DNA of 64,000 nucleotides from Cyanobacteriota bacterium. Its GTDB lineage: Bacteria > Cyanobacteriota > Cyanobacteriia > Cyanobacteriales > Nostocaceae. A program made the translations under genes and the position numbers. Each line of letters opens with the position of its first letter. Position 1 is the first letter of the stretch. Under the pieces are notes generated by a model that saw nothing but the letters and a program-made list of their open reading frames with translations, searched no databases and had not been told where the DNA came from. Location: contig JBJOKS010000018.1 of the NCBI GenBank assembly GCA_046045965.1, positions 1 to 64,000 on the forward strand, written 5' to 3'. Below, in pieces: positions 30,064-58,055 of the stretch.

Positions 30064-30080
30064 TGAGGAAGTTGTGAGGA
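30064..30080 (-). promoter_or_regulatory. TCCTCA direct-repeat box, copy 1 (zinc-ribbon gene)
   Basis: TCCTCACAACTTCCTCA on the minus strand, 11 nt before TACATT. Confidence 0.8.
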
Positions 30081-30156
30081 TTCTTGAATTATCAAAATAT
30101 AGCGTAATATTCCAAAATAAAGTACCCATATTTACTTTACAGTTCGTCACATTTTA

Positions 30157-30173
30157 TCCTCACAAGTTCCTCA
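30157..30173 (+). promoter_or_regulatory. TCCTCA direct-repeat box, copy 2 (ppsA)
   Basis: TCCTCACAAGTTCCTCA, 11 nt before TATAAA. Confidence 0.8.
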
Positions 30174-30273
30174 AATTTTCTGTGTATAAAAATAATTGTG
30201 ACGATCAAAAGCAGAACGGGTTACTAAAAGCTTTTTAATCAAAATATTTGTAGGTTTTAAAGGACTCAAAAAT

Positions 30274-32712
30274 ATGCTGGAAACACGAAGCAATCAACAA
30301 AATGATAGCCCAGCCGCCAAAGAACAGGCATTAGTCCTGCCTTTTAATACCGTTGGAATTGCAGATATTTCCTTTGTAGGGGGGAAAAATGCCTCCTTGG
30401 GAGAGATGATACAGCAGTTGCAACCCCAGGGAGTGAAGGTTCCGACTGGGTTTGCGACCACAGCTTTTGCTTATAGATATTTCATCACCAACGCAGGTTT
30501 AGAAACCAGACTGAGAAAGATTTTTGCAACTTTAGATGTAGAAGATGTAGACAATTTGCGGCAATGTGGAAAGCAAGCGCGATCGCTCATGTTAGAAACG
30601 CCATTTCCGCTAGAATTGCAAGAAGCGATCGCCAGATCCTATCAAGCTTTATGTCAAGAATACGGTGAAGATACAGACGTTGCAGTGCGTTCCAGTGCTA
30701 CCGCAGAAGACTTACCCGATGCTAGTTTTGCAGGTCAACAAGAAACCTACCTCAACGTTCACGGACTCAAAGACGTATTAGAATCTTGCCATAAATGCTT
30801 TGCTTCTATTTTTACCGACCGTGCCATTTCCTACCGACAACAAAGAGGTTTTGATCACTTCGATGTCGCACTGTCAGTAGGCGTGCAAAAAATGGTACGT
30901 TCTGATCTAGCGAGTTCTGGTGTGATGTTCTCCATTGACACTGAAACCGGGTTTAAAAATGCAGCCTTAATTACAGCTGCTTATGGTTTAGGTGAAAACG
31001 TAGTTCAAGGTGCTGTTAACCCAGACGAATATTTGGTATTTAAACCCACCTTAAAACAAGGATATAAACCGATTCTCCAAAAACGTTTGGGGACAAAAGA
31101 AATTAAAATGGTTTATGATGTGGGCGGTACAAAATTAACCAAAAACGTCTCTGTTCTCCCCTCTGAACGCAGCCAATTTGCTCTTACTAATGACGAAATT
31201 CTGCAACTAGCAAACTGGGCTTGCATTATTGAAGACCATTATTCCCAAGTCCGTGGTATGGACACACCAATGGATATTGAATGGGCAAAAGATGGTATAA
31301 CTGGTGAACTATTTATTGTCCAAGCTAGACCAGAAACAGTACAATCTCAAAAATCGAAAACCGTCCTTAAAAGTTATCAACTTCAGGAAAAAGGTGAAGT
31401 TCTGCTCACTGGTCGTAGCGTTGGTGAAATGATTGGACAAGGTAAAGCTAGAGTTATTCTTGATGCCAGTCAAATTAACCTATTCCAAGCAGGTGATGTG
31501 TTAGTTACCAACCGCACAGACCCGGACTGGGAACCAATTATGAAAAAAGCCAGTGCCATTGTTACTAATGCTGGTGGGAGGACTTGTCACGCGGCAATTA
31601 TCGCTAGAGAAATGGGAATTCCTGCCATAGTTGGTTGTGGAAATGCAACAACATTATTAAAGACTGGACAGGAAATTACTGTTAGCTGTGCTGAAGGTGA
31701 AACAGGCAAAGTTTATGCAGGTTTGTTAAACTTTGAAATTCAAGAATTGCCTTTAGAAAACTTGCCTCGTACTCGTACCAAAATTATGATGAATGTGGGC
31801 AACCCAGAGGAAGCTTTAGGTTTAACCGCAATTCCTAATGATGGTGTAGGTTTAGCAAGGATGGAATTTATTATTGCTAACCACATCAAGGCACATCCTT
31901 TAGCATTATTACATTTTGATCAATTAGAAGACGAACTAGCAAAATATAAGATTGCGGAATTAACTTCCCAATACGAAAATAAAGCTGAATTTTTCGTAGC
32001 TCAATTGGCACAAGGTATTGGTACAATTGCCGCAGCATTTTATCCCAAACCTGTCATAGTTCGTTTGTCTGATTTCAAGAGTAATGAATATGCAAACCTC
32101 TTGGGTGGTAGACAATTTGAACCCAAAGAAGAAAACCCGATGATCGGTTGGCGTGGTGCTTCTCGCTACTATGATCCTCGTTACCGTGAAGGTTTCGCCC
32201 TGGAATGTCAAGCGATGAAACGGGTACGTGATGAGATGGGTTTAACTAACATGGTTCTCATGGTTCCTTTCTGTCGTACTCCCGAAGAAGGAAAACGGGT
32301 ACTCGCAGAGATGGCAGCAAATGGCTTGGTACAAGGTGAGAACGGCTTGGAAGTCTATGTAATGTGCGAGTTACCGAGTAACGTGGTACTTGCAGATGAG
32401 TTTAGCCAAGTCTTTGACGGTTTCTCTATTGGTTCTAATGACTTGACACAGTTAACATTAGGATTAGATCGAGATTCTGAATTAGTGGCACATTTGTTTG
32501 ATGAACGCAACGAAGCTGTAAAACGGACAATTGCCAAAGCGATCGCCACCGTTAAAGAAAATAATCGCAAGATTGGTATTTGCGGTCAAGCTCCCAGCGA
32601 TTATCCCGAATTTGCCAGATTCTTGGTAGAATTAGGTATTGATTCTATCAGTCTTAACCCTGATTCTGTAATCAAGACCATGTTAGAAATTGCAGCAGCA
32701 GAAGGGAAATAG
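30274..32712 (+). CDS. ppsA: Phosphoenolpyruvate synthase
   Basis: VGGKNASLGEM, AVRSSATAED, GGRTCHAAIIARE phospho-His, FSIGSNDLTQ. Confidence 0.97.
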   Translation: MLETRSNQQNDSPAAKEQALVLPFNTVGIADISFVGGKNASLGEMIQQLQPQGVKVPTGFATTAFAYRYFITNAGLETRLRKIFATLDVEDVDNLRQCGKQARSLMLETPFPLELQEAIARSYQALCQEYGEDTDVAVRSSATAEDLPDASFAGQQETYLNVHGLKDVLESCHKCFASIFTDRAISYRQQRGFDHFDVALSVGVQKMVRSDLASSGVMFSIDTETGFKNAALITAAYGLGENVVQGAVNPDEYLVFKPTLKQGYKPILQKRLGTKEIKMVYDVGGTKLTKNVSVLPSERSQFALTNDEILQLANWACIIEDHYSQVRGMDTPMDIEWAKDGITGELFIVQARPETVQSQKSKTVLKSYQLQEKGEVLLTGRSVGEMIGQGKARVILDASQINLFQAGDVLVTNRTDPDWEPIMKKASAIVTNAGGRTCHAAIIAREMGIPAIVGCGNATTLLKTGQEITVSCAEGETGKVYAGLLNFEIQELPLENLPRTRTKIMMNVGNPEEALGLTAIPNDGVGLARMEFIIANHIKAHPLALLHFDQLEDELAKYKIAELTSQYENKAEFFVAQLAQGIGTIAAAFYPKPVIVRLSDFKSNEYANLLGGRQFEPKEENPMIGWRGASRYYDPRYREGFALECQAMKRVRDEMGLTNMVLMVPFCRTPEEGKRVLAEMAANGLVQGENGLEVYVMCELPSNVVLADEFSQVFDGFSIGSNDLTQLTLGLDRDSELVAHLFDERNEAVKRTIAKAIATVKENNRKIGICGQAPSDYPEFARFLVELGIDSISLNPDSVIKTMLEIAAAEGK

Positions 32713-32715
32713 AAA

Positions 32716-32823
32716 GCAGGGGAAGCAGGGGAAGTAGGGGAAGCAGGGGAAGCAGGGGAAGCAGGGGAAGATGAATAACCCAGTCCCCAGTTCCCAGTCC
32801 CCAGTCCCCAGTCCCCAGTCCCC
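32716..32823. repeat. STRR arrays (GCAGGGGAA)n and (CCAGTCC)n
   Basis: Tandem 9-mers and 7-mers between ppsA and pyk. Confidence 0.85.
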
Positions 32824-32901
32824 AAATTTGGCAGCAAAAAGTGAATTTAAATATCTGTACAGCCCGAAAGATTTAAAATTTGTAACGGGGAATTTACGAA
32901 T

Positions 32902-34428
32902 ATGCAGCCATTAAATGTGCAAACAAATATTCAAACAAAAACTTTAGCAGGGTTGGATCTTGCCGATCCTGCTAATTTACTGAAAACTTTACAACAACTG
33001 CGTTTGTCTGTTGATCAGGAAGGTAGGGCAATATTTGAACAATGGCGATCGCGCATTCATCGTTCTGAATTTATTAACAGTAGTCTCAATCTAGCCTATT
33101 ATATGGCATTACGCAGACATGATCTGCGTCCACTCCAAGCAGCTTTGATGCCTTGGGGTTTGTCGTCTTTGGGGAGAATAGAAGCCAAGGTTTTGCCAAC
33201 TTTAGATGCGGTGATAGCCACCTTAGCAGCGGTTTGTGGAAGAGAAACCAGTCATCCACCCATTGAAGCATTTTTTGAGGGCGATCGCCTACTCCAACAA
33301 CATACAGAAAATATTTTCGGACAGACTCTGCACCACCGCAGGGTAAGAATCATGGTGACATTACCCAGCCAAGCCGCCACTAATTACGAGTTTGTCCGAG
33401 ATCTAATTCATCAGGGTACTGACTGTGTAAGGATCAACTGCGCCCATGATACACCTATCCAATGGTTGGAGATGATTAACAATGTCCATAAGGCAGCAGC
33501 AGAGATCGGAAATTCCTGTAAAATCCTCATGGATTTAAGCGGACCAAAACCAAGAATTAAATTTGCAGTCGCACCCCATCCCAAAAAACGTATATTTAAA
33601 GGTGAATGTCTCCTCCTGACTCCCGACTCCCCCACAACCATTGGTTCTAAATGTTTCCAAGCCAGTTGCACACTACCAGAAATACTCAAAGAACTCAACG
33701 TAGGGGCTACAGTTTGGATAGATGATGGACGTATCGGGGCGCTTGTAGAGTCGATTACACAAAAAGGGGTATTATTACGAATCACCCATGCTCGGCTCAA
33801 AGGTGAAAAACTATTACCAGATAAAGGACTTAATTTCCCTTATACTGACTTACACCTCAGTTCTCTAACGAAAAAAGACAAACAAGATTTAGACTTTATT
33901 GCTGATCATGCCGATAAAATTGATATTGTCGGCTATTCTTATGTGCAGACACCTGAAGACATTCAGCTTTTACAACAAGAATTAGCAGCAAGATTACCAG
34001 AAAATTTTCCACTTCCAGCTATTGTTGCTAAAATAGAAACACCTCTAGCTGTTAGCAACTTGCCAGAATTAATTGTCCAAGCAGCAGCTAAACAACCCTT
34101 TGGGATTATGATTGCTAGAGGAGATTTAGCTATTGAGATTGGTTATCAACGTTTAGCAGAAATTCAAGAGGAAATTCTCTGGCTTTGTGAAGCTGCCCAT
34201 ATACCCGTAATTTGGGCAACCCAAGTATTAGAAAATCTTGTCAAAGATGGAATGCCATCAAGGGCAGAAATGACTGATGCGGCAATGGCAGAAAGAGCAG
34301 AATGTGTCATGTTAAATAAAGGTCCCCATATTGTGGAAGCTGTGGGAATTTTAGATGATGTTCTCACCAGAATGCAAGCACATCAAGTCAAAAAAACACC
34401 TCAATTGCGTGCGTTACAATCTTGGTAA
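32902..34428 (+). CDS. pyk: Pyruvate kinase, atypical form with N-terminal extension and no C-terminal allosteric domain
   Basis: RINCAHD, DLSGPK, AKIET, MIARGDLAIE, WATQVLE, AECVMLNKG. Confidence 0.9.
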   Translation: MQPLNVQTNIQTKTLAGLDLADPANLLKTLQQLRLSVDQEGRAIFEQWRSRIHRSEFINSSLNLAYYMALRRHDLRPLQAALMPWGLSSLGRIEAKVLPTLDAVIATLAAVCGRETSHPPIEAFFEGDRLLQQHTENIFGQTLHHRRVRIMVTLPSQAATNYEFVRDLIHQGTDCVRINCAHDTPIQWLEMINNVHKAAAEIGNSCKILMDLSGPKPRIKFAVAPHPKKRIFKGECLLLTPDSPTTIGSKCFQASCTLPEILKELNVGATVWIDDGRIGALVESITQKGVLLRITHARLKGEKLLPDKGLNFPYTDLHLSSLTKKDKQDLDFIADHADKIDIVGYSYVQTPEDIQLLQQELAARLPENFPLPAIVAKIETPLAVSNLPELIVQAAAKQPFGIMIARGDLAIEIGYQRLAEIQEEILWLCEAAHIPVIWATQVLENLVKDGMPSRAEMTDAAMAERAECVMLNKGPHIVEAVGILDDVLTRMQAHQVKKTPQLRALQSW

Positions 34429-37964: not shown

Positions 37965-39029
37965 CTATTTTTCTCCTATATATATGCCTAAAGAGTGAGC
38001 AATTTGTATTAAATCAGATTTAGGATCAACAAGTGAGGGACTTTTATCTAGAGCATCTTGGATAGGAACAGCTACAGCTTGTCCATTTTGCCAAGCTAAC
38101 ATTTGATCATATTTTTCTTGGGCAATTAAATCAACTGCGGTTTTACCAAATACTGTAGCTGTGAGACGGTCTAAAGCTGAGGGAATACCACCTCGTTGAA
38201 TATGTCCCAAAACAGAAACTCTCGTATCTACTAAATTATTGCTACAACTAGCAATTTGATCTGCAATATATTGACCACGACCACATTTAGGAGAAGAACA
38301 ATTAGCAGGATTATCAACATCTTCTATACTAGAAGTAGCACCTTCAGCAACAACCACGATGGCAAATTTTCGCCGCCAGAGATCGCGCAATTGGCTAAGA
38401 TGATCACACAAACCTTTGATAGTATAAGACCGTTCAGGAATTAAAATCACATCTGCACCACCAGCAATACCAGAATGTAAAGCTAAATGACCAGCAGTGC
38501 GTCCCATTACTTCCACAATCATTACTCGGTCATGACTGGCAGCCGTAAATGTGAGACGATTAATAGCATCAACAACTGTATTTACTGCCGTATCAAAACC
38601 TATCGAGCGTTCTGTTAAAGCTACATCATTATCAATGGTTTTGGGAATAGCAACTAAATTCCAATTACCCAAAGTTGCTAACTCATGGATAATCTTTAAA
38701 CTACCATCTCCACCTACAGCAATTAAAGCATCTAAACCCAATGCTTCATAACTGGCTAAAATTTCCGTTGCAGAAGCTAAAGTATCTCCTTTATTAATAC
38801 TACCTAAAATCGTTCCCCCCATATTTATTAAAGGGTCAATACCTCGTAAGTCCCAACCGTGTAAATTTAGGGGGATAGTTTGCCGTTCTAATAAACCTTG
38901 GGTAGCATAGGGAATACCCACAACTTCCCAATTAAACGTAAGTGTCGCATGACTAACAACTGCTCGAATTACACAGTTTAAACCAGGACAGTCACCACCA
39001 CTTGTAAGAATACCAATGCGTTTTTTCAT
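37965..39029 (-). CDS. pfkA: 6-phosphofructokinase (PfkA family)
   Basis: GILTSGGDCPGLN, GGDGS, PKTIDND, EVMGR, LGHIQRGG. Confidence 0.95.
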   Translation of the reverse strand: MKKRIGILTSGGDCPGLNCVIRAVVSHATLTFNWEVVGIPYATQGLLERQTIPLNLHGWDLRGIDPLINMGGTILGSINKGDTLASATEILASYEALGLDALIAVGGDGSLKIIHELATLGNWNLVAIPKTIDNDVALTERSIGFDTAVNTVVDAINRLTFTAASHDRVMIVEVMGRTAGHLALHSGIAGGADVILIPERSYTIKGLCDHLSQLRDLWRRKFAIVVVAEGATSSIEDVDNPANCSSPKCGRGQYIADQIASCSNNLVDTRVSVLGHIQRGGIPSALDRLTATVFGKTAVDLIAQEKYDQMLAWQNGQAVAVPIQDALDKSPSLVDPKSDLIQIAHSLGIYIGEK

Positions 39030-39185: not shown

Positions 39186-40217
39186 TCACCTCATCTGTGT
39201 TGACATCTGTGTGTGTCGTCCCCATTCTGGTTTGTAACTTTGTAAAGCCTTCATATACTGAGCGCGTTCAAAGGCGCTAGGATCAGGACAGTTGCGTTGA
39301 CTCATGCTACCCTGCATCTGTTTAACAGACTCATATTCGTGGGTTTCCATCCATTCCCGCACGTCTTTTTCTAGACACCGAATATGATCAATACCATGAC
39401 GTAATAATACTGAACATAGCATAGTTGCATTTGCCCCTACCATCAGCATTTTTATGACATCATGAGCATTGTGAATACCGCTAGTTGCAGCCAGACTACC
39501 TTGAATATGACCATAGAGAATAGCTATCCAGCGCAGAGGTAAACGTATATCTTGAGGTGTACTTAATAGTACATGAGGTTCTACTTCCAAATGCTCTAAA
39601 TTAATATCTGGTTGATAGAACCGATTAAATAATACCAAACCATCAGCCCCAGCTTGATCTAACCGCTTGGCCATATTTGCAGTATTGGTAAAATAGGGAC
39701 TGAGTTTTACAGCTACAGGAATGGTAACTGCGGCTTTAACTCTGGCGAGAATATCAATATATGTGTTTTCAATTTCGTGGCTCGTTAGGTCTATATCTGT
39801 GGGAACATAATAAATATTAAGTTCTAGGGCTGATGCACCTGCTTGTTGAATTAAATGAGCGTAATTAGTCCATCCTCCCACAGAACAACCATTTAAACTA
39901 CCAATAATGGGAATATCTACTTGTTCTTTGGCTTTGCGAATATGGTCTAAATATTCTTCTGGTCCTACGCGGAAAGTTGTAGGTTCAGGAAAATAAGTTA
40001 AGGATTCGGCAAAACTTTCTGTACCATAAGTTAAATGATGATGCAGTTCGTATTTTTCTAAAGTTAATTGTTCTTCAAATAACGAGTGCATAACTACTGC
40101 ACCAGCACCAGCATCTTCCATAAATTTGATATTATCAACTTCTTGGGAGAGGGGAGAAGCTGAAGGTACGAGGGGAGACTTTAATTCTAATCCGAGATAT
40201 GTTGTAGTTATATTCAT
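39186..40217 (-). CDS. Dihydroorotate dehydrogenase-like flavoprotein (PFOR-associated)
   Basis: [31 protein letters not shown]. Confidence 0.85.
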
Positions 40218-40344: not shown

Positions 40345-43300
40345 TTATTTAACTGCTTTTGGTTGTTTGTTTTCTTGAACTTCTTGTAATTTCCTGGCGG
40401 CTAAATATTGATACATTTGCCAACGAGTATTAACATCAGATTGGGCTTCTTGCAAGAATTCTTTTGCCTTTTCTGGGTTAATTTTGGTCAACATTTTGAA
40501 CCGATTTTCCATATACATGGAATTTTCAACTGGTATTCTAGGAGTGCGTGAATCAAGTTGTAAGGGGTTTTGTCCTTGTTCCACACGGTCGGGATGATAA
40601 CGGTACAATAACCAACGTCCAGAGTCTACAGCAGCTTTTTGATTTTGCATTGCTGTAGCCATATTAATACCATGAGCAACACAATGACTGTAGGCAATTA
40701 TTAATGATGGTCCATCGTAAGCTTCCGCTTCCAAAAATGCTTTTAATGTGTGTTCATCTCTTGCACCCATAGCCACACTAGCAACGTAAACATTACCATA
40801 GGTCATGGCTATTAAACCCAGGTCTTTTTTAGCTGCGGGTTTACCACCTGCTGCAAATTTTGCTACTGCACCTTTGGGGGTTGATTTGGACATTTGACCG
40901 CCAGTGTTAGAATAAACTTCTGTGTCTAATACCAAAATATTGACATTGCGACCACTAGCAATTACATGATCTAATCCACCGTAACCAATATCATAAGCCC
41001 AACCATCACCACCGATAATCCAAACACTCTTTTTCACTAAATAATCAGCTAAGGATTTGAGATTTTGGATTTGGGATTTTAGATTGGTGAAATCGGTATT
41101 ATTCAACAATTCATCTAATTTTGCTTTGAGAATAGATACCCGTTCTCTTTGTTCGTAAATATCCGCTTCGTCTTTTTGTTCAGCATTAAGAATTGCGGTA
41201 ACTAAATTGTCGCCTATTTGGGGTGCAAGTTGTTGGAGTAAATAAGCTGCCATTTCTGCTTGTTTATCAATAGAAACGCGGAAACCTAAACCAAATTCGG
41301 CGTTATCTTCAAATAAACTATTAGACCAAGCTGGACCTCTACCTTCAGCGTTTGTTGTCCAAGGTGTAGTAGGTAAATTACCACCATAGATGGATGAACA
41401 ACCGGTGGCGTTTGCTACGATCATGCGATCGCCAAATAATTGTGTTACCAGTTTAATATATGGTGTTTCTCCACATCCTCCACAAGCACCAGAGAACTCA
41501 AATAACGGTTCTTGCATTTGTTGTTGATTAATTCTATTCAACTTCAAATTTCTGCGGTCTGGATTTGGTAAACTCAAGAAGAAATCCCAGTTTTCCCGTT
41601 CTGCTTCTCTTAATGGTCTTTGTGGTTCCATATTAATGGCTTTTTTGCGTGGTTCGGCTTTATTTTTCGCCGGACATACATCCACACATAAAGCACAACC
41701 TGTACAGTCTTCTGCTGCTACTTGAATGGTAAACTTCAAATCATGCCAATCATGTTCTTTTGCATTTGCACTTTTGAAGGTTGTAGGGGCATTTTCTAAC
41801 TGTTCTGGTTCATAAACTTTACCCCTAATTACGCTGTGTGGACAGACCATTACACATTTACCACATTGAATACAAACGTCTGAGTCCCAAACAGGAATTT
41901 CTTGAGCAATATTGCGTTTTTCCCATTTCGATGTACCTGTAGGATATGAACCATCACAAGGTAATGCACTCACTGGTAAATCATCACCTTCACGGGCTAT
42001 CATTTTACCTAAAACATCACGCACAAATGCAGGTGCATAATGGGGAATAGGTGACAGTTGACAGGTGACAGGTGACAGTTCTTTTTTGAGTTCTTTAGTT
42101 GTGATTTCGTAGAGGTTATCCAAGGTTTTATCAACTGCTTGAATATTCATTTGGACGATTTCTTCGCCTTTTTTACCGTAGGTTTTGCGAATTGATTTTT
42201 TAATTTGGGCTATCGCTTCTTCTCTGGGTAAAACACCGGAAACTGCAAAGAAACAAACCTGCATGACTGTGTTAATATGTCCGCCCATTCCCGCTTCCCG
42301 TGCGACTTTATAGGCATTAATTACATAAAATTTGAGATTTTTGGTAATTATCTCTTCTTGCATAGAAGCGGGTAATTTATCCCATACTTCATCTTTGTTA
42401 TAAGGTGAATTCAGTAAGAACGTACCACCAGGGACAATATCTTTCAACATGGGGAATTTTTCTACAAACTCCCATTGATGACAAGCGACGAAGTTGGCTT
42501 TGGTGATTAAATAGGTAGAGCGAATTTGTTGAGGTCCAAACCGCAAATGGGAAACTGTAACAGAACCAGATTTTTTTGAGTCGTAAACAAAGTAACCTTG
42601 AGCATAATTATCAGTTTCTTCACCGATAATTTTGATAGAGTTTTTGTTTGCTCCGACTGTACCATCAGCACCTAAACCATAGAAAATAGCTCTAACTATG
42701 CTATCAGATTCAATGTTAAATTCTGGGTCATATTCTAGGCTGGTGTGGGTGACATCATCGTTAATACCAACTGTGAAATGATTTTTTGGAGATCCCCCTT
42801 TGTCCCCCTTATTAAGGGGGGTTGGGGGGATCAAATTATCAAATACAGCTTTTACCATTGCAGGTGTAAATTCTTTAGAAGATAAACCATATCTTCCACC
42901 AACTACTTGAATATTATTGAGTTGATTTTCTGCCAAAGCTGTGACGACATCTGTATATAGAGGTTCGCCAATTGCTCCTGGTTCTTTGGTTCTATCTAAA
43001 ACTGCAATACTGCGGGTTGTTTTTGGTAAAGCATCAATAAATCTTTGGGTGTCAAAAGGACGATATAATCTAACTTTGATAACTCCAACTTTTTCTCCTT
43101 GTTTTTTGAGATAATCTACGGTTTCATGAACTGTTTCACAACCAGAACCCATGAGGATAATTATTCTTTCTGCTTCTGGATCTCCATGATATTCAAATAG
43201 TTTATATTGTCGCCGTGTAATTGCGGCGAATTCATCCATTACCTTCTGAGTGATATCTGGGCAAGCAAGATAAAATGGGTTTACTGTTTCCCTGGCTTGA

Positions 43301-43986
43301 AAGTAAACATCGGGGTTTTGGGCTGTTCCTCTTAATACTGGTTTATCAGGAGTTAAAGCCCGTGAGCGATGGTTTATTACTAATTCTATGGGGATGATTT
43401 TTTGTAAGTCTTCGGTTGTTAATGTTTCTACTTTATCTACTTCGTGAGAGGTGCGAAAACCATCAAAAAAGTGTAAGAAAGGAATGCGAGATTCTAAAGT
43501 TGCACGGGTAGAAATAACGGCAAAATCTTGAGCTTCTTGCACAGAAGCAGCGCATAACATGGCAAAACCGGTACTTCTAGCGGCCATGACATCACTATGA
43601 TCACCAAAAATTGATAATGCCTGTGCTGCAAGCGATCGCGCCGCAATATGAAATACTGTAGGTGTAAGTTCACCGGCAATTTTGTACATATTCGGGATCA
43701 TTAACATTAATCCCTGGGATGCTGTAAATGTGGTAGTTAGTGAACCGGTTTGTAAAGCACCATGTACAGCGCCGGCAACTCCTCCTTCACTCTGCAACTG
43801 TACTACGGTGGGAACACTACCCCAAATATTGGGTTTATTTTCACTCATCCAAGCATCAGACCATTCAGCCATCGGTGAAGATGGTGTAATGGGATAAATA
43901 GCAATAACTTCATTGAGTGGGTAGACAACTTTGGCAACTGCTTCGTTACCGTCTATGGTGGCATAAGTTCTAGTTTTCATATTCAT
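40345..43986 (-). CDS. nifJ: Pyruvate:ferredoxin/flavodoxin oxidoreductase
   Basis: YPITPSS, CIQCGKC and CTGCALC Fe-S motifs, GACGGCGE, GGDGWAYDIG. Confidence 0.97.
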   Translation of the reverse strand: MNMKTRTYATIDGNEAVAKVVYPLNEVIAIYPITPSSPMAEWSDAWMSENKPNIWGSVPTVVQLQSEGGVAGAVHGALQTGSLTTTFTASQGLMLMIPNMYKIAGELTPTVFHIAARSLAAQALSIFGDHSDVMAARSTGFAMLCAASVQEAQDFAVISTRATLESRIPFLHFFDGFRTSHEVDKVETLTTEDLQKIIPIELVINHRSRALTPDKPVLRGTAQNPDVYFQARETVNPFYLACPDITQKVMDEFAAITRRQYKLFEYHGDPEAERIIILMGSGCETVHETVDYLKKQGEKVGVIKVRLYRPFDTQRFIDALPKTTRSIAVLDRTKEPGAIGEPLYTDVVTALAENQLNNIQVVGGRYGLSSKEFTPAMVKAVFDNLIPPTPLNKGDKGGSPKNHFTVGINDDVTHTSLEYDPEFNIESDSIVRAIFYGLGADGTVGANKNSIKIIGEETDNYAQGYFVYDSKKSGSVTVSHLRFGPQQIRSTYLITKANFVACHQWEFVEKFPMLKDIVPGGTFLLNSPYNKDEVWDKLPASMQEEIITKNLKFYVINAYKVAREAGMGGHINTVMQVCFFAVSGVLPREEAIAQIKKSIRKTYGKKGEEIVQMNIQAVDKTLDNLYEITTKELKKELSPVTCQLSPIPHYAPAFVRDVLGKMIAREGDDLPVSALPCDGSYPTGTSKWEKRNIAQEIPVWDSDVCIQCGKCVMVCPHSVIRGKVYEPEQLENAPTTFKSANAKEHDWHDLKFTIQVAAEDCTGCALCVDVCPAKNKAEPRKKAINMEPQRPLREAERENWDFFLSLPNPDRRNLKLNRINQQQMQEPLFEFSGACGGCGETPYIKLVTQLFGDRMIVANATGCSSIYGGNLPTTPWTTNAEGRGPAWSNSLFEDNAEFGLGFRVSIDKQAEMAAYLLQQLAPQIGDNLVTAILNAEQKDEADIYEQRERVSILKAKLDELLNNTDFTNLKSQIQNLKSLADYLVKKSVWIIGGDGWAYDIGYGGLDHVIASGRNVNILVLDTEVYSNTGGQMSKSTPKGAVAKFAAGGKPAAKKDLGLIAMTYGNVYVASVAMGARDEHTLKAFLEAEAYDGPSLIIAYSHCVAHGINMATAMQNQKAAVDSGRWLLYRYHPDRVEQGQNPLQLDSRTPRIPVENSMYMENRFKMLTKINPEKAKEFLQEAQSDVNTRWQMYQYLAARKLQEVQENKQPKAVK
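42791..42832. repeat. Palindromic dispersed repeat lying in-frame within nifJ
   Basis: GATC-CCCCTTTGTCCCCCTTATTAAGGGGGGTTGGGGG-GATC; encodes about IPPTPLNKGDKGGS. Confidence 0.75.
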
Positions 43987-44096
43987 TAACCTTTGAGAAT
44001 TTTTAAACTATGGATCATAAAGTAAATGGAAAAAAATCGAACCCAGTCCCCAGTCCCCAGTATCCTGGTGTCTATCTTGAAACTAAACTGAAAATT

Positions 44097-44113
44097 TGAG
44101 GAACTTGTGAGGA
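44097..44113 (-). promoter_or_regulatory. TCCTCA direct-repeat box, copy 3 (nifJ operon)
   Basis: TCCTCACAAGTTCCTCA on the minus strand, 11 nt before TAGTTT. Confidence 0.8.
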
Positions 44114-44213: not shown

Positions 44214-44230
44214 TCCTCACAAGTTCCTCA
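44214..44230 (+). promoter_or_regulatory. TCCTCA direct-repeat box, copy 4 (DUF442-like gene)
   Basis: TCCTCACAAGTTCCTCA, 11 nt before TAAATT. Confidence 0.8.
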
Positions 44231-44377
44231 ACTTCTAGTTCTAAATTAATAGTAGATTAAGGACTAATCGGTTAAGACTTGTATAACAAGGTTGTAGGAA
44301 ATTCCTACATTAATTTTTAATACCAAGTTGGAGACAGGGTTGCCATCAAAATATTAACTTCATTTCCACCAAAACCT

Positions 44378-44782
44378 ATGATTGACAATGTACTGCCAAT
44401 GAATATTGTCAGGAAGATTAATCAGGAGATAACAATCAGTGGACAAATTACACCAGAACAGCTACAAAAGCTGGCTGATGATGGTTATAAGTCTGTCCTA
44501 AATCTGTGTTTTGCCGATGAACAAGGCTCCTGGAAAAGCGAACAGGAAGAAACTGAATTTCTAGGATTATGTTATGTCAATCAGCCTACAAAAATTGAAA
44601 ATCTAACTCTTCAAGGTGCAAGCCAGGTTTTTCAAATTATTAACGAATTGCCTAAACCACTGCTGATACATTGTAATAATTCCAAACGATCAGCAGCTAT
44701 AGTATTATTATATATTTCTACTAAACAAGGAATTAATTTTGAGCAGGTCTGGCAACAGGCTATCAATTTAGACTTGCTATAG
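44378..44782 (+). CDS. DUF442/Blh-like phosphatase-fold (sulfurtransferase-like) protein
   Basis: SGQITPEQLQKLADDGYKSVLNL, PLLIHCNNSKRS. Confidence 0.75.
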   Translation: MIDNVLPMNIVRKINQEITISGQITPEQLQKLADDGYKSVLNLCFADEQGSWKSEQEETEFLGLCYVNQPTKIENLTLQGASQVFQIINELPKPLLIHCNNSKRSAAIVLLYISTKQGINFEQVWQQAINLDLL

Positions 44783-45176: not shown

Positions 45177-45222
45177 AACTAGCCCTGATATAACTGGTAT
45201 TATTGGAGATTTGGCGTTACAT

Positions 45223-51534: not shown

Positions 51535-51549
51535 TAGTTGACTTTTTCA

Positions 51550-51582
51550 AGATTCCCGGCTTATTTAATAAGTCAGGAATCT
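51550..51582. repeat. Palindromic hairpin between convergent genes
   Basis: AGATTCCCGGCTTATTTAATAAGTCAGGAATCT. Confidence 0.65.
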
Positions 51583-51589
51583 ATCTTTA

Positions 51590-51952
51590 TTATGGCAAAT
51601 TAACTAAAAAATCAGGTACTTCCAAAACATGAAAATATACCAACAAAGCCACCACAATTGTATAAAGTGTAGAACCACCCAAACCCAAAATTAAATCTCG
51701 TTTTAAATTGCGGTTTTCTTCTTTAAAAAACATATCCATAGCTCCCATTTGCATCATTACAATACCCAACACATTTGAGAGCCAATAGCCCATAATTGTA
51801 AACGGTAAAAACCAATCCGGCTTTGCCCAACTTACCAGATAACCAAACAATAAAGCAATTGGTAAATTAAAAAATACATCATTCCACCAGGATAAAGGCG
51901 ATAACATATAGCCTATTCCCACAAATAAACTACCACGCAATTTTTTAAACAT
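51590..51952 (-). CDS. Hypothetical membrane protein
   Basis: GYMLSPLSWWNDVFFNLPIA; 3-4 TM segments. Confidence 0.75.
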   Translation of the reverse strand: MFKKLRGSLFVGIGYMLSPLSWWNDVFFNLPIALLFGYLVSWAKPDWFLPFTIMGYWLSNVLGIVMMQMGAMDMFFKEENRNLKRDLILGLGGSTLYTIVVALLVYFHVLEVPDFLVNLP

Positions 51953-51990
51953 TTATTTATCCTCCTATTAATGTTACTTAACTTAATAAA

Positions 51991-52632
51991 TCAAAAACTC
52001 AAATCAGGTAAATCATCAGCTTTATTGAGGATAAATAAACTTTCATCTCCTCCTCTGCCAATTCTTAATGTTTCATCTAAGTAAGTAATATCAAGAGTTG
52101 CAACTCTACCTTTAGGTCCAGTAGCAGCTACGACTTTAAATGGATTTAGTTGAGGAGTGTTAACACCTATAATCTTATCAATCGCTAAATAGCGTTTATC
52201 AAAATAAACATTTATTCGCTTATCTGGTAAACTAGATGTATCTAAATCAGGTTCAAATCTAGCTGTTACTTTCACATATCCTGAGATAAATTTGAGGGGA
52301 TGTTTGACATAAGCAAGGTTAAAAAACTGTGCATCAGCCACATTAATGACTTGATAAACCTTACCTATTTGTAAACCTAGAGGTAGAGAATCTAAAGCCC
52401 GAATTTCTCTAGCTGTAGAGTATTGTAATTGCCAAGCTCCATTTAATAAATTAATAGCATTCTGGAGTGGTTGCGGATGGGGATTAAGACTTTCTAATTC
52501 AACTGTTAACTGTTCTATTTCTGCGGCTTTAGTTTTGTCAAGTTTTAAATTAGTAATGGGAGAACCATCATCCTGAATTTTAATTTCTTTAATTAATGCT
52601 TGGAACTGTTCTTTCAATGTTTGACGATCCAT
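51991..52632 (-). CDS. PAP/fibrillin family protein
   Basis: LESLNP, LLNGAWQLQYST, LDITYLDETLRIGRG; ATG at 52632 preferred as start. Confidence 0.88.
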   Translation of the reverse strand: MDRQTLKEQFQALIKEIKIQDDGSPITNLKLDKTKAAEIEQLTVELESLNPHPQPLQNAINLLNGAWQLQYSTAREIRALDSLPLGLQIGKVYQVINVADAQFFNLAYVKHPLKFISGYVKVTARFEPDLDTSSLPDKRINVYFDKRYLAIDKIIGVNTPQLNPFKVVAATGPKGRVATLDITYLDETLRIGRGGDESLFILNKADDLPDLSF

Positions 52633-52677
52633 AAACTGATATTTTGCTATTATTAACAAATAAGATTGTAACTCAAA

Positions 52678-53160
52678 ATGGAACTAAAAATTGTAACTTT
52701 AGAAATTCCCGTAGGTTGTAACCTGATATTGGGACAAACCCACTTTATCAAAACTGTAGAGGATTTATATGAAATCATGGTAGGGATATCCTCACAGGTT
52801 AAGTTTGGTATTGCTTTCTGTGAAGCATCAGCAGCTTGTTTGATTAGAATAGCTGGAAATGATGAAAATTTGCAAGAAGTAGCTACTAAAAATGCTCAAG
52901 CTATCAGTGCAGGACATAGTTTTTTAGTTATATTAAAAGACGCTTATCCTATCAATTTTCTCAATGCTATTAAACAATGTCCAGAAGTTTGCAATATTTA
53001 TTGTGCTACTGCTAATCCCGTCCAAGTAATTTTAGCAGAAACTGAACAAGGGCGGGGTATTCTTGGTGTAATTGATGGATTTTCAGCCAAGGATGTAGAA
53101 GGTGATGAAGATATAAAAGCACGTCAAGAATTACTGCGTCATATAGGTTATAAATTGTAG
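52678..53160 (+). CDS. Adenosine-specific kinase family protein (DUF355)
   Basis: NLILGQTHFIKTVEDLYE, FCEAS, CATANP, LLRHIGYKL. Confidence 0.85.
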   Translation: MELKIVTLEIPVGCNLILGQTHFIKTVEDLYEIMVGISSQVKFGIAFCEASAACLIRIAGNDENLQEVATKNAQAISAGHSFLVILKDAYPINFLNAIKQCPEVCNIYCATANPVQVILAETEQGRGILGVIDGFSAKDVEGDEDIKARQELLRHIGYKL

Positions 53161-53175
53161 CTGGGTGGAAAGGAT

Positions 53176-53628
53176 ATGGCTATTAATTATCGAGAAAAAA
53201 TTATTGCTTTGTGGACAGTATTTCTATTAGGGACACTGTTTCATACTCAACTAGGTTTAATGCCATTATTTCATGGTTTAAATGTACTTGAATCTCAACC
53301 AGCTACATCACTCAATGAACTTTCAGGAATTTTTTGGTTAATGTTAGGCTTTTTTGTATTGCCAATGTTAGCTATTATTGGTACTGCTTTTACTGAAAAT
53401 AAACGTTATCGAATCATACATTTGGGTTTAACTATTTTTTATGGTATTATGAATTTAATGCACTTGATTTTAGATTTACTTTTACCACAAGTTTTATGGT
53501 ATCAAATCGCTTTGATGTTGCTGCTATTTTTAATTGGTTTATTGTTGATTTTTGTGGCTTATCAGTGGATGAAATCTCCCGTAATTAGAGAAAATCACTT
53601 GGGATCTAAATCTTCTACAATAATCTGA
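53176..53628 (+). CDS. Hypothetical membrane protein
   Basis: Four hydrophobic segments; follows the previous gene after 15 bp. Confidence 0.7.
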   Translation: MAINYREKIIALWTVFLLGTLFHTQLGLMPLFHGLNVLESQPATSLNELSGIFWLMLGFFVLPMLAIIGTAFTENKRYRIIHLGLTIFYGIMNLMHLILDLLLPQVLWYQIALMLLLFLIGLLLIFVAYQWMKSPVIRENHLGSKSSTII

Positions 53629-53700
53629 TTCATAGTCAAGTATTTACACTTCCATAAGTTTACCTCTTTGGTTATATTCTAATATCTAGACTTTCCCCAC

Positions 53701-54450
53701 TTAAAAAAAATCTGCTGCTTCAATTGTGGCTTGAAAAAAAACATTATACTTTTCCGTTCCCAACCACCATCCTGCATTTATTTGGGAGGGAATAGTAAAA
53801 CCTTGAAAACTGGTTTCTTGTGAAAATGTGCCACCAAAGGGTATGTATTGCCAAATTTTATCTGTTGTTTGATTTCCCCAACGTGGTAATTTAGCTTCTA
53901 AAACTCTACCATTTTCATCAATAATAAAAGTGAGATTCACCGTATCACTATCAATATTAAAACTTGCTTGAATTATATTGTTATCAATAGCTTGCCAGCT
54001 TACCTGATTTTGCGGTAATAAAGCAGATGGCAACCAAAATAATTCACCTCCACATCTACCAATACTAGAACGAGAAACATCAGAATTTTCTTCTTTTACT
54101 AATGGAATTAAACCCCAGAGTTTAAACTCTACTTTTCCTGAATTATTATAATAATAATCTGCCCCTTTAATATTAAACAATTTATTACCCATGACTGCTT
54201 GCCACACAAATCCTTTAAGAGTTAAAATTTCTGTGGCTTGCATGGTAAATTTTTGATCTTTATTTGGTTGAAAATAACCTTGCATTTTTAACTTCACACC
54301 AGTTGCTAAAGGTGTTCCCAGAGTAATAGCGTGTAAGAAATAACGTTGTACTGGTGCTGGTAATTCCGCAATTAAATCTTGGGTGAATATCTGTTTTGTT
54401 GTTGGATATTCCAGACTTAGCCAAATTTGATTAATGTTTTGTTTGTTCAT
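53701..54450 (-). CDS. DUF6544-like hypothetical protein
   Basis: LPAPVQRYF, ELFWLPSALLP, GFTIPSQINAGW; ATG at 54450 preferred as start. Confidence 0.65.
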   Translation of the reverse strand: MNKQNINQIWLSLEYPTTKQIFTQDLIAELPAPVQRYFLHAITLGTPLATGVKLKMQGYFQPNKDQKFTMQATEILTLKGFVWQAVMGNKLFNIKGADYYYNNSGKVEFKLWGLIPLVKEENSDVSRSSIGRCGGELFWLPSALLPQNQVSWQAIDNNIIQASFNIDSDTVNLTFIIDENGRVLEAKLPRWGNQTTDKIWQYIPFGGTFSQETSFQGFTIPSQINAGWWLGTEKYNVFFQATIEAADFF

Positions 54451-54477
54451 ATTTTGTGAATATATTAACCGAACATA

Positions 54478-54506
54478 GTAAGAGTTTAGCATTGCTAAAC
54501 CCCTAC
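54478..54506. repeat. GTAG-type REP-like palindrome
   Basis: GTAAGAGTTTAGCATTGCTAAACCCCTAC; related inverted copy at 62400. Confidence 0.7.
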
Positions 54507-54517
54507 TGATTACTTAC

Positions 54518-57286
54518 CTACAAATCAATCTCCGCTTTTAACACAGTTGCATCATTAGTATGTGACATCTTAAAACCGAGTCTTTCACATACTTTCTGCA
54601 TTCCTAAATTATCAGCCAATATATCAGCAGATATAGAAGAGATTTTCTCGTTTCTACCTACTTCTATTAACCTCCTGAGTAACTCTGTACCTAAGCCTTG
54701 ACATTGATAGCGATCGCTAATTAACATAGCAAATTCCGCCCCATCATTACCATGTAATTTACTCAATCTTCCCACTGCTAAAATTTCCGTTTCTCTGGTT
54801 TCTGGATTTTGATATTCTGCGACTAATGCCATTTCTCGATCATAGTCAATAAAACAAATTCTGGTAAGTCGTTCATGGGCTATTCTTTGACTTAATTTAA
54901 TTAAGTGAAAATAACGTAAATACACACTTTCTTCTGATAGTGTTTGATGGAATTTAACTATCAATGGTTCATCTTCAGGACGGATAGGACGGATATTAAT
55001 TGGTGTCCCATTTTTCAATGTCCAATTACCAACATATTGGTGAGGATAGGGACGAATTCCTAATTTCGGTAATTGATCATCTTCAACATCAGCAGGATGT
55101 AAAACTATCCTCCCATCTAAAGCTATTAAACCACCAGGATGATCAGGACTAGGAGGAATAGCTAATAAAGGATTAATATCAATTTCTTTAATCGCTGGTT
55201 GTTCTACGACCAAATGACTAAATACTACTAACAATTCCTCCAAAGCTGCCATATTTATACTTTCTCTACCCCGCACACCTTTTAAGGCTTTATAGATTTT
55301 GGTTTGTTCCATCATCCTTCTTGCTAGGGTACTATTTAAAGGTGGTAAAGCAATGGCACTATCTTGAAAAACTTCCACCAATTGTCCCCCAGCACCAAAT
55401 AATAATACTGGTCCAAACTGCGGATCTAAACTACTACCAATGATTAATTCATAACCGCTAGTTTTTACCATTTGCTGCACGGTTACGCCTAAAAAATCTT
55501 CTGGCTTGGCTTTTTCTAATACCGAAGTTTCTATTAAATGATAGGCTTTTTTTACAGCTTCGGCATTTCTTAAATTTAACTGCACCCCACCCACATCTGT
55601 TTTATGGGTAATTGTTTGAGAATACAATTTTAAAACCACTGGATAACCAATTTTTTCAGCACATTCTACCGCTTCTTCTGCACTTTTAGCAATGCTTCCA
55701 GCTACTACAGGAATACCATAAGCAGCTAAGACTTCCTTAGATTCAAATTCTGTTAAAATCGTTCTTCCTGCTTTTCTGGCATCGTTAATAATGGTTTCAA
55801 CTAATGCACAATTACGGGAACTACTATCACATTCTAAACTTGATAGTACAGGAGTTTCATAAATTCCCTTTAAGTTATAACTATACCGCCACATATAGCT
55901 AAATATCCGCGCTGCGGTATCGGGATAAGGATATGTAGGAATACCTTGACGGTTAAGAATTTGTTGCCCTTCTGCTACATCTTCTCCACCCATCCAACTT
56001 GCTAAAATTGGTTTATTCGACATTTGCGCGTAGGGTTCTAATTGTTCAGCAATTTTTGTCGGATCGGTCATTGCTTGGGGTGTTAAAATTACTAACAAAC
56101 CATCACTATTAGGATCTTTGGCAGCAATTTCTAAAGCTTTTGTATAACGTTGAGGATCTGCATCTCCTAAAATATCAATAGGGTTATTATGACTCCATTG
56201 TGGGGGTAAAATTTCATTTAAACCCTGCATGACTTCTTCAGAAATTGGTGCAAGTTCTCCCTTACTTTCTATTAATGTATCAGTGGCTAATACTCCTGGT
56301 CCACCGGCATTAGTTAAAATTGTTAATCTTGGACCTTTGGGTCGCGGTTGTTTTGCTAATACTTCTGACATATCAAATAAATCAGAAATACTATCAACTC
56401 TTAATACTCCACACCGACGAAAAGCTGCATCTAAAACAGCATCACTTCCTGCTAATGATCCTGTATGAGAAGCGGCCGCTTTTGCTGCTGCTGCGGTACG
56501 ACCAGCTTTAATAACAATTATCGGTTTTGTTAATGCTACTTCTCGCGCTGCGGAAAGAAAAGAACGCGCATCACCGATTGATTCCATATAGATTACAATA
56601 CTTTTTGTATTGGGATCATCTCCCAAATAATAAATTAAGTCTCCCCAACCTATATCTAACATTGAACCGATAGAAACAAAGGCACTAAAACCAACGTTTT
56701 CCTGTAAACTCCAATCCAAAATTGATGTACATAATGCCCCACTTTGACTTAAGAAACCTACATTTCCTGGTTGTGCCATTTTACTAGCAAATGTAGCATT
56801 TAAACCAGAAATTGGACTCATAACTCCTAAACAGTTTGGTCCAATAATTCTAATTTTTCCTTTGTGTGCTATTTCCAGAATTTCTTGTTCTAAAGCAATT
56901 CCTTTTTCTCCTGCTTCTTTAAAACCAGCAGAGATAATTATTGCTCCTTTAATTCCGGCTTTTACGCAATCAGTAATAATTTGTGGTACTGTGGGTGCAG
57001 GGGTAGCAATTACCGCTAAATCAATTTTTTCAGGAACATCAAAAATTGTCGGATAGGCTTTAATTCCTAATACACTATTGCGTTTGGGATTGATGGGAAA
57101 TACTGTACCATTGAAAGGGTTTGTAATTAAATTCCAGAGTAAGGTTCTACCCACACTTCCGGGTTTTTCACTTGCACCAATGACGGCTACGGTTTGAGGG
57201 GCAAAAATCGCGTCTAAGGGGTTGATTTTCTCGGTTTGTAAGATGTCGTAAGCTTTGTCTGTCGTTGGTTTGATAGATGCTTGCAT
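54518..57286 (-). CDS. Acetate-CoA ligase (ADP-forming) family protein fused to a GNAT acetyltransferase (Pat-like architecture)
   Basis: [41 protein letters not shown]-grasp, [14 protein letters not shown] motif A. Confidence 0.92.
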
Positions 57287-57369
57287 AATTACTCCTTAAT
57301 TAGTTATTAGTCATTAGTTATTGGGTATTAGTGTTTTTTTTCAATTACCCATTACCTATTACCCATTTT

Positions 57370-57837
57370 TCACTCTGAATTCATCCCTAAATTGTTATGT
57401 TTATCTAGAATTTGCATAATTTTTGATAGTGCAGTGGTAATACCTTTTTGTGCTGTAGGTGAAATGCGATCGCTCAATTCAAAATTAACACCTGGGACAG
57501 TGACTAACCATGCTAATGGACAATTACCATAGAGAAATTGAGCCAGAAAAAGTAAGGTTTGCGGATCACTTGTATGGGGATTAATAGTATTTGATTCACT
57601 AGGTAATAATGGTTTTACCTGTACTTCATGAGATTGGGAATTAATACAGGCATCCACAAAAATTGCTAACTGAGAATTTGCCAAAGGTTCAGCTAATTCT
57701 GGTGTAAGTTGGTGAACAGCAACTGATTTTACAGATGATAAACACCAAAATTTTATAGCCTTTGCTACCTGTTGTCCAATGGCATCATCACCCCGTAATT
57801 CATTACCGTAACCAATCACTATTGCAGTTCCACTCAT
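57370..57837 (-). CDS. hoxW: Hydrogenase maturation protease
   Basis: IGYGNELRGDDAIG, HQLTPELAE, IFVDA; close to hoxH. Confidence 0.88.
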   Translation of the reverse strand: MSGTAIVIGYGNELRGDDAIGQQVAKAIKFWCLSSVKSVAVHQLTPELAEPLANSQLAIFVDACINSQSHEVQVKPLLPSESNTINPHTSDPQTLLFLAQFLYGNCPLAWLVTVPGVNFELSDRISPTAQKGITTALSKIMQILDKHNNLGMNSE

Positions 57838-58038
57838 TACCTGATCATCCTCTTAGTAAGTCACTAATTGCTTGTATTATTAGACATTTTAGCTTTTGGA
57901 TTGCTAATTCCCTTTCCCTTGTAAATATACCTTGGTTGAAATCCATCTCTCACAATCATTTGACAAATTAGTAGAATTGGCATATTGTCATTTAAAATCA
58001 GCATTCTCTTCTTTATATTTGAGCTTAAAACAAAAGTT

Positions 58039-58055
58039 TGAGGAACTTGTGAGGA
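58039..58055 (-). promoter_or_regulatory. TCCTCA direct-repeat box, copy 5 (hoxW and acetate-CoA ligase)
   Basis: TCCTCACAAGTTCCTCA on the minus strand, 11 nt before TAAGCT. Confidence 0.8.

Follow-up and report, generated by a model that had tools for sequence, protein, structure and literature searches.

A tandem box at fixed distance before hydrogenase and fermentation promoters of filamentous cyanobacteria, and a candidate RcaC-type regulator with a putative haem sensor

Box copies in the window and in the genome

The stretch of DNA analysed here (the window, 64,000 nucleotides) opens contig C18 of a Nostocaceae genome of 5.29 Mb in 107 contigs, and a 17-bp sequence (the box) recurs in it before genes of fermentation and hydrogen metabolism. 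Its features and those just beyond its end that bear on the box are the following.

29739..29963, minus strand: gene for a 74-aa Cys-rich (zinc-ribbon-like) protein, no Pfam match
30047..30052, minus: putative -10 element TACATT, predicted start about 30040
30064..30080, minus: box before the zinc-ribbon gene; same box before homologues at 12 unique sites
30157..30173, plus: box before ppsA; 13 unique homologous sites
30185..30190, plus: putative -10 element TATAAA, predicted start about 30197
30274..32712, plus: ppsA, phosphoenolpyruvate (PEP) synthase
32902..34428, plus: pyruvate kinase (PRK14725 type), with a separate box of its own in genome G447
37965..39029, minus: pfkA, with a separate box of its own in other genomes
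39186..40217, minus: dihydroorotate-dehydrogenase-like protein (PRK07565)
40345..43986, minus: nifJ, pyruvate:ferredoxin/flavodoxin oxidoreductase (PFOR)
44080..44085, minus: putative -10 element TAGTTT, predicted start about 44073
44097..44113, minus: box before nifJ; 10 unique homologous sites
44214..44230, plus: box before the DUF442-like gene
44242..44247, plus: putative -10 element TAAATT, predicted start about 44254
44378..44782, plus: small phosphatase-like (DUF442/BLH) gene, weak match (E 6e-4)
54518..57286, minus: acyl-CoA synthetase (ADP-forming)-like protein fused to a GNAT domain
57370..57837, minus: hoxW-like hydrogenase maturation protease (TIGR00072)
58022..58027, minus: putative -10 element TAAGCT, predicted start about 58015
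58039..58055, minus: box before hoxW; 13 unique homologous sites
59600..63720, minus: hoxU, DUF3122, hoxY, CBS-CP12 and hoxH, distal part of the usp-hoxE-hoxF-hoxU run (hox names by sequence resemblance)
C18:66727-66743, minus, beyond the window: sixth exact box, heading the usp-hox run
C18:66873-70778, plus, beyond the window: candidate regulator, 1301 aa, divergent from usp-hox
C18:70864-71250, plus, beyond the window: single-domain receiver, 128 aa, after the regulator

A scan of the window returned the five copies reported in the first-pass annotation, at the same coordinates and on the same strands; four are identical, with a central G, and the copy at 30064-30080 carries C at the central position. 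No further match was found in the window at up to three mismatches, and 100 shuffles of the window gave a mean of 0.27 matches, five being reached in none. Each box is directed at the gene that had been named for it, 100-201 nt before the ATG, and is followed after 11 nt by the hexamer originally read there (TACATT, TATAAA, TAGTTT, TAAATT and TAAGCT). All five copies are intergenic, including the one at 30064 despite a possible TTG-extended frame, because homologues of the zinc-ribbon gene begin at the ATG at 29963 and not at the TTG. The flanks of the window copies are only 22-43% identical in pairwise comparison, so that the box is not part of a longer repeat, and Rfam holds no match for it. 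The call behind the name "DUF442 gene" is weak, its match being below the Pfam cut-off (E 6e-4).

In the whole genome the 17-mer occurs six times exactly, always on C18, once with one mismatch, five times with two and 32 times with three. When the 5.29 Mb were scanned with a weight matrix derived from other genomes (213 unique sites), nine sites scored at least 28 bits, the next score being 14.9, and the reversed matrix gave one match, at 18; three of the five two-mismatch sites and every three-mismatch site are at background level. The nine strong sites comprise the five in the window and those at usp-hoxE-hoxF-hoxU (C18:66743), at two radical-SAM genes (C58), at ptox (C5) and near a contig end on C13. 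At the last of these (C13:231) the contig ends in a repeat and no gene can be assigned, and similarly flanked sites precede protoglobin in genomes G167 and G001. Further copies had been predicted upstream of hoxE and of hyp genes; the former is present (C18:66743), whereas none was found before hyp genes of this genome.

Promoter layout, spread and targets

The box is a direct repeat of two 11-bp units, with its halves at positions 1-6 and 12-17. It had been described as separated from the -10 element by 11 nt of differing sequence, and this length stands, but the spacer is not free in sequence, its first four bases being mostly AATT; because AATT continues the 17-mer, the element extends over about 21-22 bp. 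Within the proposed -10 consensus TANNNT it is the TA that is conserved, whereas the final T is not (14/53 and 124/213 sites in two collections). The first of these collections comes from 80 loci fetched around the candidate regulator described below, for which downstream sequence was not used and sites were accepted at up to two mismatches; 45 of the 80 loci carry a site (53 sites in all, against 0 in the reversed control), and TA follows at exactly 11 nt in 51 of the 53. Among 30 loci chosen by the 17-mer alone, a hand count found TA at 11 nt in 31/34 sites, two of the three exceptions lying within reading frames. The gap is likewise 11 nt in 204 of 213 sites that had been partly selected with TA, a gap of 10 occurring once and a gap of 12 never. 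The orientation is also fixed, since 176 of 267 unique sites have a gene of a 28-gene reference set in sense within 450 nt and none has one in antisense, the other 91 being unassigned.

In promoters activated by PhoB, the two 11-bp direct units of the pho box replace the -35 element about 10 bp before the -10, and activation proceeds via sigma region 4. The comparative data support the original description of the element as a tandem box of OmpR/PhoB type that occupies the -35 position and lies in the sense direction before fermentation and hydrogen genes, and no sigma-70 -35 match was found in any of the four promoters scanned (one being excluded by the scan's own rule). A transcription start is predicted about 23-24 nt after the box. 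It falls at -63 before usp in locus L051, and -64 is given for alr0750 (printed alr0705) in a table of PMC4183373, these being different genomes with box-usp gaps of 34-357 nt. Before hoxU, the predicted start is at -57 in loci L141 and L368. A 2007 study by Sjoholm is said to have placed the hoxU start at -57 and to have reported anaerobic induction. Such agreement of predicted with listed starts, across different genomes, is suggestive only. Transcript-start tables of Nodularia (three supplement files) and one Fischerella table covering a subset of the candidate genes contained no box, and the supplement of PMC4183373 gave no match for the box or for alr0750. Assembled public RNA contigs (word shares 0.05-0.47; three runs over 39200-58400) yielded scattered pieces that carry no start or end signal.

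The box had been held distinct from LexA and NtcA sites, and it is indeed a direct repeat and not a palindrome. The sites of RpaB (HLR1), SphR, ManR, NrrA and RpaA we also take to be different from it. Two exact NtcA-type palindromes do lie near the boxes, at window positions 30122-30135 between the ppsA-side copies and at C18:66688-66701 just after the predicted usp start, and a nitrogen input is possible. The LexA consensus given in PMC3091678 occurs near the promoters with one or two mismatches only, at positions other than that of the repeat; these near-matches, like the NtcA-type palindromes, are located next to the boxes or overlap them by very little.

At up to one mismatch the 17-mer was found in 25 of 41 relatives (one match in the control), and the box followed by TA in 178 of 201 genomes of the family. 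A sample of 301 genomes of the phylum gave 48 with box plus TA, 35 in the family and 13 among 263 outside it, eight of the 13 with at least two sites. The box is a conserved repeat at a fixed distance before hydrogenase and fermentation promoters in most filamentous nitrogen-fixing cyanobacteria.

Recurrent targets, in counts that are biased towards usp by how the loci were fetched, are usp (52 unique sites), hoxW and ppsA (13 each), the zinc-ribbon gene (12), nifJ (10), pflA (9), hsp20 (8), radical-SAM genes (7), protoglobin (5), hoxE and pfkA (4 each), hoxU and ptox (3 each), and pflB and a psbA variant (2 each). Targets seen once are often unrelated or of no known function, such as ftsH, feoB, a lon-like gene, cfa, yedE and DUF305. 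An exact box precedes ptox in all four g63 genomes in which ptox was found (eight searched). The psbA variant headed by a box (L146:2601-3668, and L030) has the manganese ligands Glu189, Glu333, Asp342 and Ala344 replaced, as checked for L146; we take it to be a "rogue D1", inactive in water splitting. A second box in L146 faces the other way, towards a PLP decarboxylase. A conserved gene of about 410 aa is also headed by the box (L006, L045, L153 and L359; five unique sites), and its product, tested on L153, has no match in Pfam or NCBIfam. Inside the hox run of the window the CBS-CP12 and DUF3122 genes are embedded at 61133-62952, and elsewhere CBS-CP12-like genes follow the box at two sites.

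Expression data from strain PCC 7120 can be set beside these targets. One hour after cells were washed from 3% to 0.04% CO2 in the light, ppsA had fallen 107-fold, the hox clusters 74-fold, ptox 65-fold and nifJ 42-fold, and in the printed tables these are the only rows of Table 2 down more than 10-fold, while a LysR gene in Table 3 was down 146-fold (PMC7699953). All four strongly falling gene sets are box targets in the genomes studied here. Since the experiment involved pelleting and a change of medium, O2 history was uncontrolled; the authors found the fall of ptox surprising and suggested LexA or cyAbrB for hox (PMC7699953). The CO2 shift supports the existence of one regulon, the promoter sequences of PCC 7120 itself lying outside the comparison. 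Also, hox and nifJ move together with Ca2+ (PMC4915528).

A candidate regulator and its co-occurrence with the box

To the statement that no OmpR-type gene lies in the window it can be added that a fitting one sits 2.9 kb past its end, divergent from usp-hox. Its product is one of 10 Trans_reg_C proteins of this genome and has, according to Pfam, the domains REC-wHTH-HPt-REC-PAS-PAS-HisKA-HATPase-REC-REC, the wHTH being PF00486. The REC-wHTH-HPt-REC order is that of RcaC/RfpB-type proteins, at least 90% of 81 sequences keep the phospho-acceptor Asp51 and the HPt residue His292, and the His motif of the kinase is also conserved. A single-receiver gene adjoins the regulator gene in 73 of 80 loci and overlaps it in one; the other six loci end within 257 nt of the gene. 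The recognition helix (12 residues) is near-invariant in the 81 orthologues, and within this genome the candidate is the sole Trans_reg_C protein that has it. The length of complete orthologues is between 774 and 1897 aa, their middle domains vary, and some have GAF domains, of which Pfam finds none in the regulator of this genome. Cys171 of the winged helix, which may be a thiol switch on DNA binding, is invariant in the 81 orthologues and is also found in most of the distant ones; many paralogues have Arg at this position, and in genomes G296 and G445 it is Pro. BAB74127.1 (1627 aa) is the orthologue of PCC 7120 type, in which helix, His and Arg are all kept, and by accession numbering it is presumably alr2428. 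The latter gene is listed as an annotated hybrid sensor-regulator (PMC12267927).

The kinase-proximal PAS domain has FixL (E 1e-22) and then DosP as its best PDB matches and is 38% identical to FixL, the other PAS having no comparable match. A structural model built from 46 sequences (pLDDT 74; a single-sequence fold with pLDDT 39 was set aside) retrieved FixL, Dos and the FG214 haem-PAS (PDB 10jx) ahead of LOV domains in a fold search. Arg762 aligns with the residue changed in the FixL R220A structure 1y28, and His741 with the His of FixL that we take to be the proximal haem ligand. His741 is kept in 78/78 orthologues, and position 762 is Arg in 71 and Gln in seven of the 78, while three truncated sequences gave no PAS. 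Among five PAS matches in this genome it is the only one with both residues. By sequence and model, then, the domain is a putative haem domain of FixL/Dos type, resembling oxygen sensors. A 2004 paper in DNA Research on PAS proteins of Anabaena reportedly may have touched on haem binding.

The presence of the box follows that of the regulator. With orthologues defined by at least 70% identity over REC-wHTH (the next matches being at 64%), 23 of the 41 relatives have an orthologue and all 23 have the box, as do two of the 18 without one. In the 201 family genomes, each of the 160 orthologue-positive ones has at least two sites, whereas among the 41 negative ones the count is zero in 23, one in 12, and 2, 2, 3, 3, 6 and 7 in the other six. 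The first search of the family scored 14 candidates per genome, and all 41 negatives were rescored with the wHTH; the best identity was then 61%, and the 18 helices that could be inspected all differ. Both states occur in six genera, five of which split cleanly. The box follows the regulator and not the hydrogenase, because hoxH is found in 12 of the 41 regulator-negative genomes, 10 of these 12 having 0-1 sites, and because all nine genomes of genus g42 have no hoxH match yet keep the regulator and 2-3 sites. Three rival OmpR proteins of this genome were profiled; of the 23 genomes without a box, 22, 23 and 9 retain them, and a paralogue of the second gives second matches in seven.

Outside the family, 80 of the 263 genomes were searched, 12 of them site-positive; mostly small genomes and other classes were left out. 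The six best wHTH matches all come from site-positive genomes. The eight outside genomes with at least two sites have 12, 12, 12, 12, 11, 11, 10 and 9 of the 12 helix residues, and the best matches in 21 zero-site genomes have 5-10. In G296 and G445, which have 12 and 17 sites, the identical helix belongs to a protein that is 55% alike overall and ranks below paralogues; there the regulator is a stand-alone REC-wHTH-HPt-REC protein. A separate kinase-like gene adjoins it in G281, G296 and G040.

Interpretation, known systems and neighbouring genes

From the geometry and orientation of the box, its targets and its co-occurrence with the regulator, we consider it probable that the box is the binding site of the RcaC-type, OmpR-family hybrid regulator and that the latter acts as an activator. 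Two winged-helix domains would bind head-to-tail on the two 11-bp units, and the box would replace the -35 element, with RNA polymerase recruited, by analogy with PhoB, to a weak TA-led -10 at a fixed distance; the term activator is suggested by this spacing. Upstream of it, the FixL-type haem PAS would control autophosphorylation at His817, and the phosphate would pass to a receiver (either an internal REC or the single-domain protein encoded next to the regulator), from there to HPt His292 and finally to Asp51, the phosphorylation of which would turn DNA binding on. The output may serve to remove excess electrons at times when O2 or other sinks are limiting, through PFOR, pyruvate formate-lyase (PFL) and its activase, the bidirectional hydrogenase (Hox), HoxW, PEP synthase, Pfk, PTOX, protoglobin, Hsp20 and in some genomes rogue D1. 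A dark or anoxic role is suggested by target identity together with the putative haem-PAS, and we regard haem-sensed O2 as the main input with about even confidence. The regulator would then be a missing master switch for the hydrogenase and fermentation genes. It can be speculated, at a level of confidence just short of even, that heterocystous cyanobacteria possess in it a dedicated haem O2 switch, a FixL-like kinase and an OmpR activator in one chain, with a role like that of FNR or FixLJ elsewhere; fermentation, the bidirectional hydrogenase and in some species a rogue D1 that disables water splitting would all be controlled via one box.

Several observations weigh against this interpretation. 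PTOX needs O2. In the light, under air with 3% CO2, the target genes are highly expressed, a pattern not predicted by a simple model of expression only without O2; the authors of that study point to LexA and cyAbrB as regulators (PMC7699953). Only 45 of the 80 regulator loci carry a site, and a haem-PAS is found in only three of seven neighbourhoods of non-family orthologues. In genus g67, the exception to the clean split, genomes with the regulator have 2, 3 and 11 sites and those without it 0, 1, 1, 2 and 3. G343 and G284 have 10 of 12 helix residues yet no site, and G246 has four sites with a 9/12 helix. No orthologue was found in G138 (99% complete, 60 contigs), yet it has six sites: five precede canonical targets (usp-hox, hoxW, nifJ, the zinc-ribbon gene and protoglobin) and one an unassigned gene. 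A TA-less one lies before ppsA in addition. Three of its six sites have mismatches, and a kdp operon lies upstream of usp-hox (C56; L293, L194). All eight genomes of its genus are without the regulator gene and have 0, 0, 1, 1, 1, 1, 3 and 6 sites, which would fit a decay of the box after regulator loss. Further genomes without orthologue are G176 and G214 with three sites each, G083 and G193 with two each, and G067 (860 contigs) with seven. The co-occurrence is also a correlation among kin, in which genomes are not independent, so that Fisher and hypergeometric values overstate it, and the profiling of rival readers covered three OmpR proteins of this genome.

The same box and regulator may instead respond to a surplus of carbon or electrons (via haem redox state, CO or NO, the variable PAS and GAF domains, or other kinases feeding the HPt) and not to O2. 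In this refinement of the explanation above the genes form an electron-overflow regulon that anoxia triggers indirectly, and we see it as a serious possibility at somewhat less than even chances. It would account for ppsA, hox, ptox and nifJ being high in the light at 3% CO2 and falling 42- to 107-fold in air CO2 (PMC7699953), for the covariation of hox and nifJ with Ca2+ (PMC4915528), for orthologues of such different length and middle domains, and for the haem-PAS being present in only three of the seven non-family neighbourhoods. Set against it are the FixL-type His in all 78 untruncated orthologues and the Arg in 71, targets that include the O2-sensitive PFL/PflA and rogue D1, and the uncontrolled O2 history of the CO2 experiment. 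That another factor co-inherited with the same cluster (another two-component or a non-OmpR protein) reads the box, the hybrid kinase being a fellow traveller, appears unlikely: the regulator often adjoins usp-hox, which makes joint loss possible, and G138, G176, G214 and G067 keep several sites without it, but regulator and sites stay together in nine genomes without a hoxH match, 10 of 12 hox-bearing genomes lack both, box and recognition helix go together in distant families with different gene order, and no second one of the 10 Trans_reg_C proteins has that helix.

Three further explanations can be set beside these. Action of the regulator on the box as a repressor, blocking the -35 region until induction, would agree with the overlap of the box with that position and with the report that RcaC both activates and represses (PMC5737509), but it would need neither single-base spacing nor fixed orientation, and the gap is 11 in 204/213 partly TA-selected sites with gaps 10 and 12 at 1 and 0; as the four scanned promoters (one excluded by the scan's own rule) also have no sigma-70 -35 match, we judge repression to be quite improbable. 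Strict spacing to TA would equally be expected of an alternative-sigma promoter that uses part of the 17-mer as a -35-like element 16-17 nt from TA and needs no separate activator, and SigE takes part in the transcription of hox and nifJ in Synechocystis (PMC13421787). About 21 constrained positions in a direct repeat of one helical turn exceed what sigma region 4 reads, though, and box presence follows one OmpR-type protein (the proteins profiled as readers being of OmpR type), which leaves this alternative highly improbable. Nostocales are rich in short repeats, and runs of this sort also occur in the window (near 39033-39149, for instance). That the box is a dispersed or mobile repeat or an RNA element with no role in regulation is nevertheless largely refuted and has a negligible chance, as there are only nine strong sites in 5.3 Mb, their flanks are unrelated, Rfam has no match, orientation and spacing are fixed, and the same targets recur across genera.

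The proposed activator resembles known systems in each of its parts. With PhoB and SphR it shares the OmpR/PhoB winged helix (PF00486) and the tandem 11-bp geometry of the pho box, but box sequence and recognition helix differ (the protein of this genome that we would label SphR-like is 37% alike and has another helix), and it adds an HPt, extra receivers and its own kinase and targets fermentation and hydrogen genes. Its REC-wHTH-HPt-REC front end corresponds in layout to that of the RcaE-RcaF-RcaC and RfpA-RfpC-RfpB systems, and the single-domain receiver encoded beside it is a feature like RcaF or RfpC. In contrast to these, a haem-type PAS takes the place of the bilin GAF as sensor, kinase and regulator form one chain in Nostocaceae (G281, G296 and G040 have a separate kinase gene), and box and targets differ, the latter being mostly fermentation and hox genes, which speaks against membership in chromatic acclimation. 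The L-box of Fremyella diplosiphon is a direct repeat. It is called inverted in PMC5737509, which gives the relay as kinase to RcaF to RcaC. The haem-type PAS, here directly before the kinase core, is shared with FixL-FixJ, DosP and the one-component factor FG214, whereas here an HPt relay would lead to an OmpR-type output domain on the same polypeptide, FixJ being separate and LuxR-type.

Overlapping genes and conditions have been ascribed to LexA, to CyAbrB1/2 with SigE and to RpaA, which act on hox and nifJ, and to ChlR, which acts on low-O2 tetrapyrrole genes, and none of them is described with this box in the parts of these sources consulted (PMC13421787, PMC3091678, PMC4463661). For hox, the portion consulted of a review of July 2026 gives RpaA, CyAbrB1/2 and SigE, and neither "FixL" nor "oxygen sens" occurs in that review (PMC13421787). 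CdgK/CdgS was considered and, from what was available of its description, is a different system (PMC9927289). No description of the box or of the regulator's targets was found in the open literature, RegPrecise, subscription journals and key older papers being outside the search. Each part is of a known kind; what appears to be undescribed is their combination, a FixL-type haem kinase connected by an Rca-type relay to a new tandem box at genes of fermentation and hydrogen metabolism. The control of hox and of pyruvate fermentation is still explained by general factors (LexA, CyAbrB, SigE, RpaA), without a specific signal path, in the sources consulted (PMC13421787, PMC4463661). The present analysis offers a box, a candidate gene in a model strain, a candidate sensor domain and a target list, which reduces the question to one gene, and it places hydrogen production in a single regulon with PFL, PTOX and rogue D1. 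A possible use would be a tight, switchable promoter for O2-sensitive enzymes in photosynthetic hosts.

Several other genes of the window deserve mention. The protein encoded at 54518-57286 keeps the His of its SHTG motif and may be a ligase, an acetyltransferase or both; its fusion of an acyl-CoA-synthetase-like part with GNAT presumably corresponds to the layout of Pat-type lysine acetyltransferases. Between pyk and pfkA (34932-37913) lies a gene for a CBS-PAS hybrid kinase whose matching PAS is without the haem His, and the start of the haem-PAS kinase beside the regulator in G296 resembles, by eye, a region of this protein. A run on the minus strand at 19836-23118, without a box, encodes an unassigned 156-aa protein, a Roadblock/LC7 protein, a small ATP/GTP-binding protein, a DUF4388 protein and a protoglobin that is 70% identical to the box-linked protoglobin type. 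Inside the fermentation cluster, also without a box, a HetP-family gene, sucrose synthase and a fusion of GH65 phosphorylase with a HAD (beta-PGM-like) domain occupy 44883-51534. At 6671-11258 an ethylene-receptor-like hybrid kinase (ETR1_N, GAF, HisKA, HATPase, REC, HPt) is followed by a REC-GAF-GGDEF gene. Short tandem-repeat runs occur in the intergenic stretches 32700-32900, 39033-39149 and 44040-44062.

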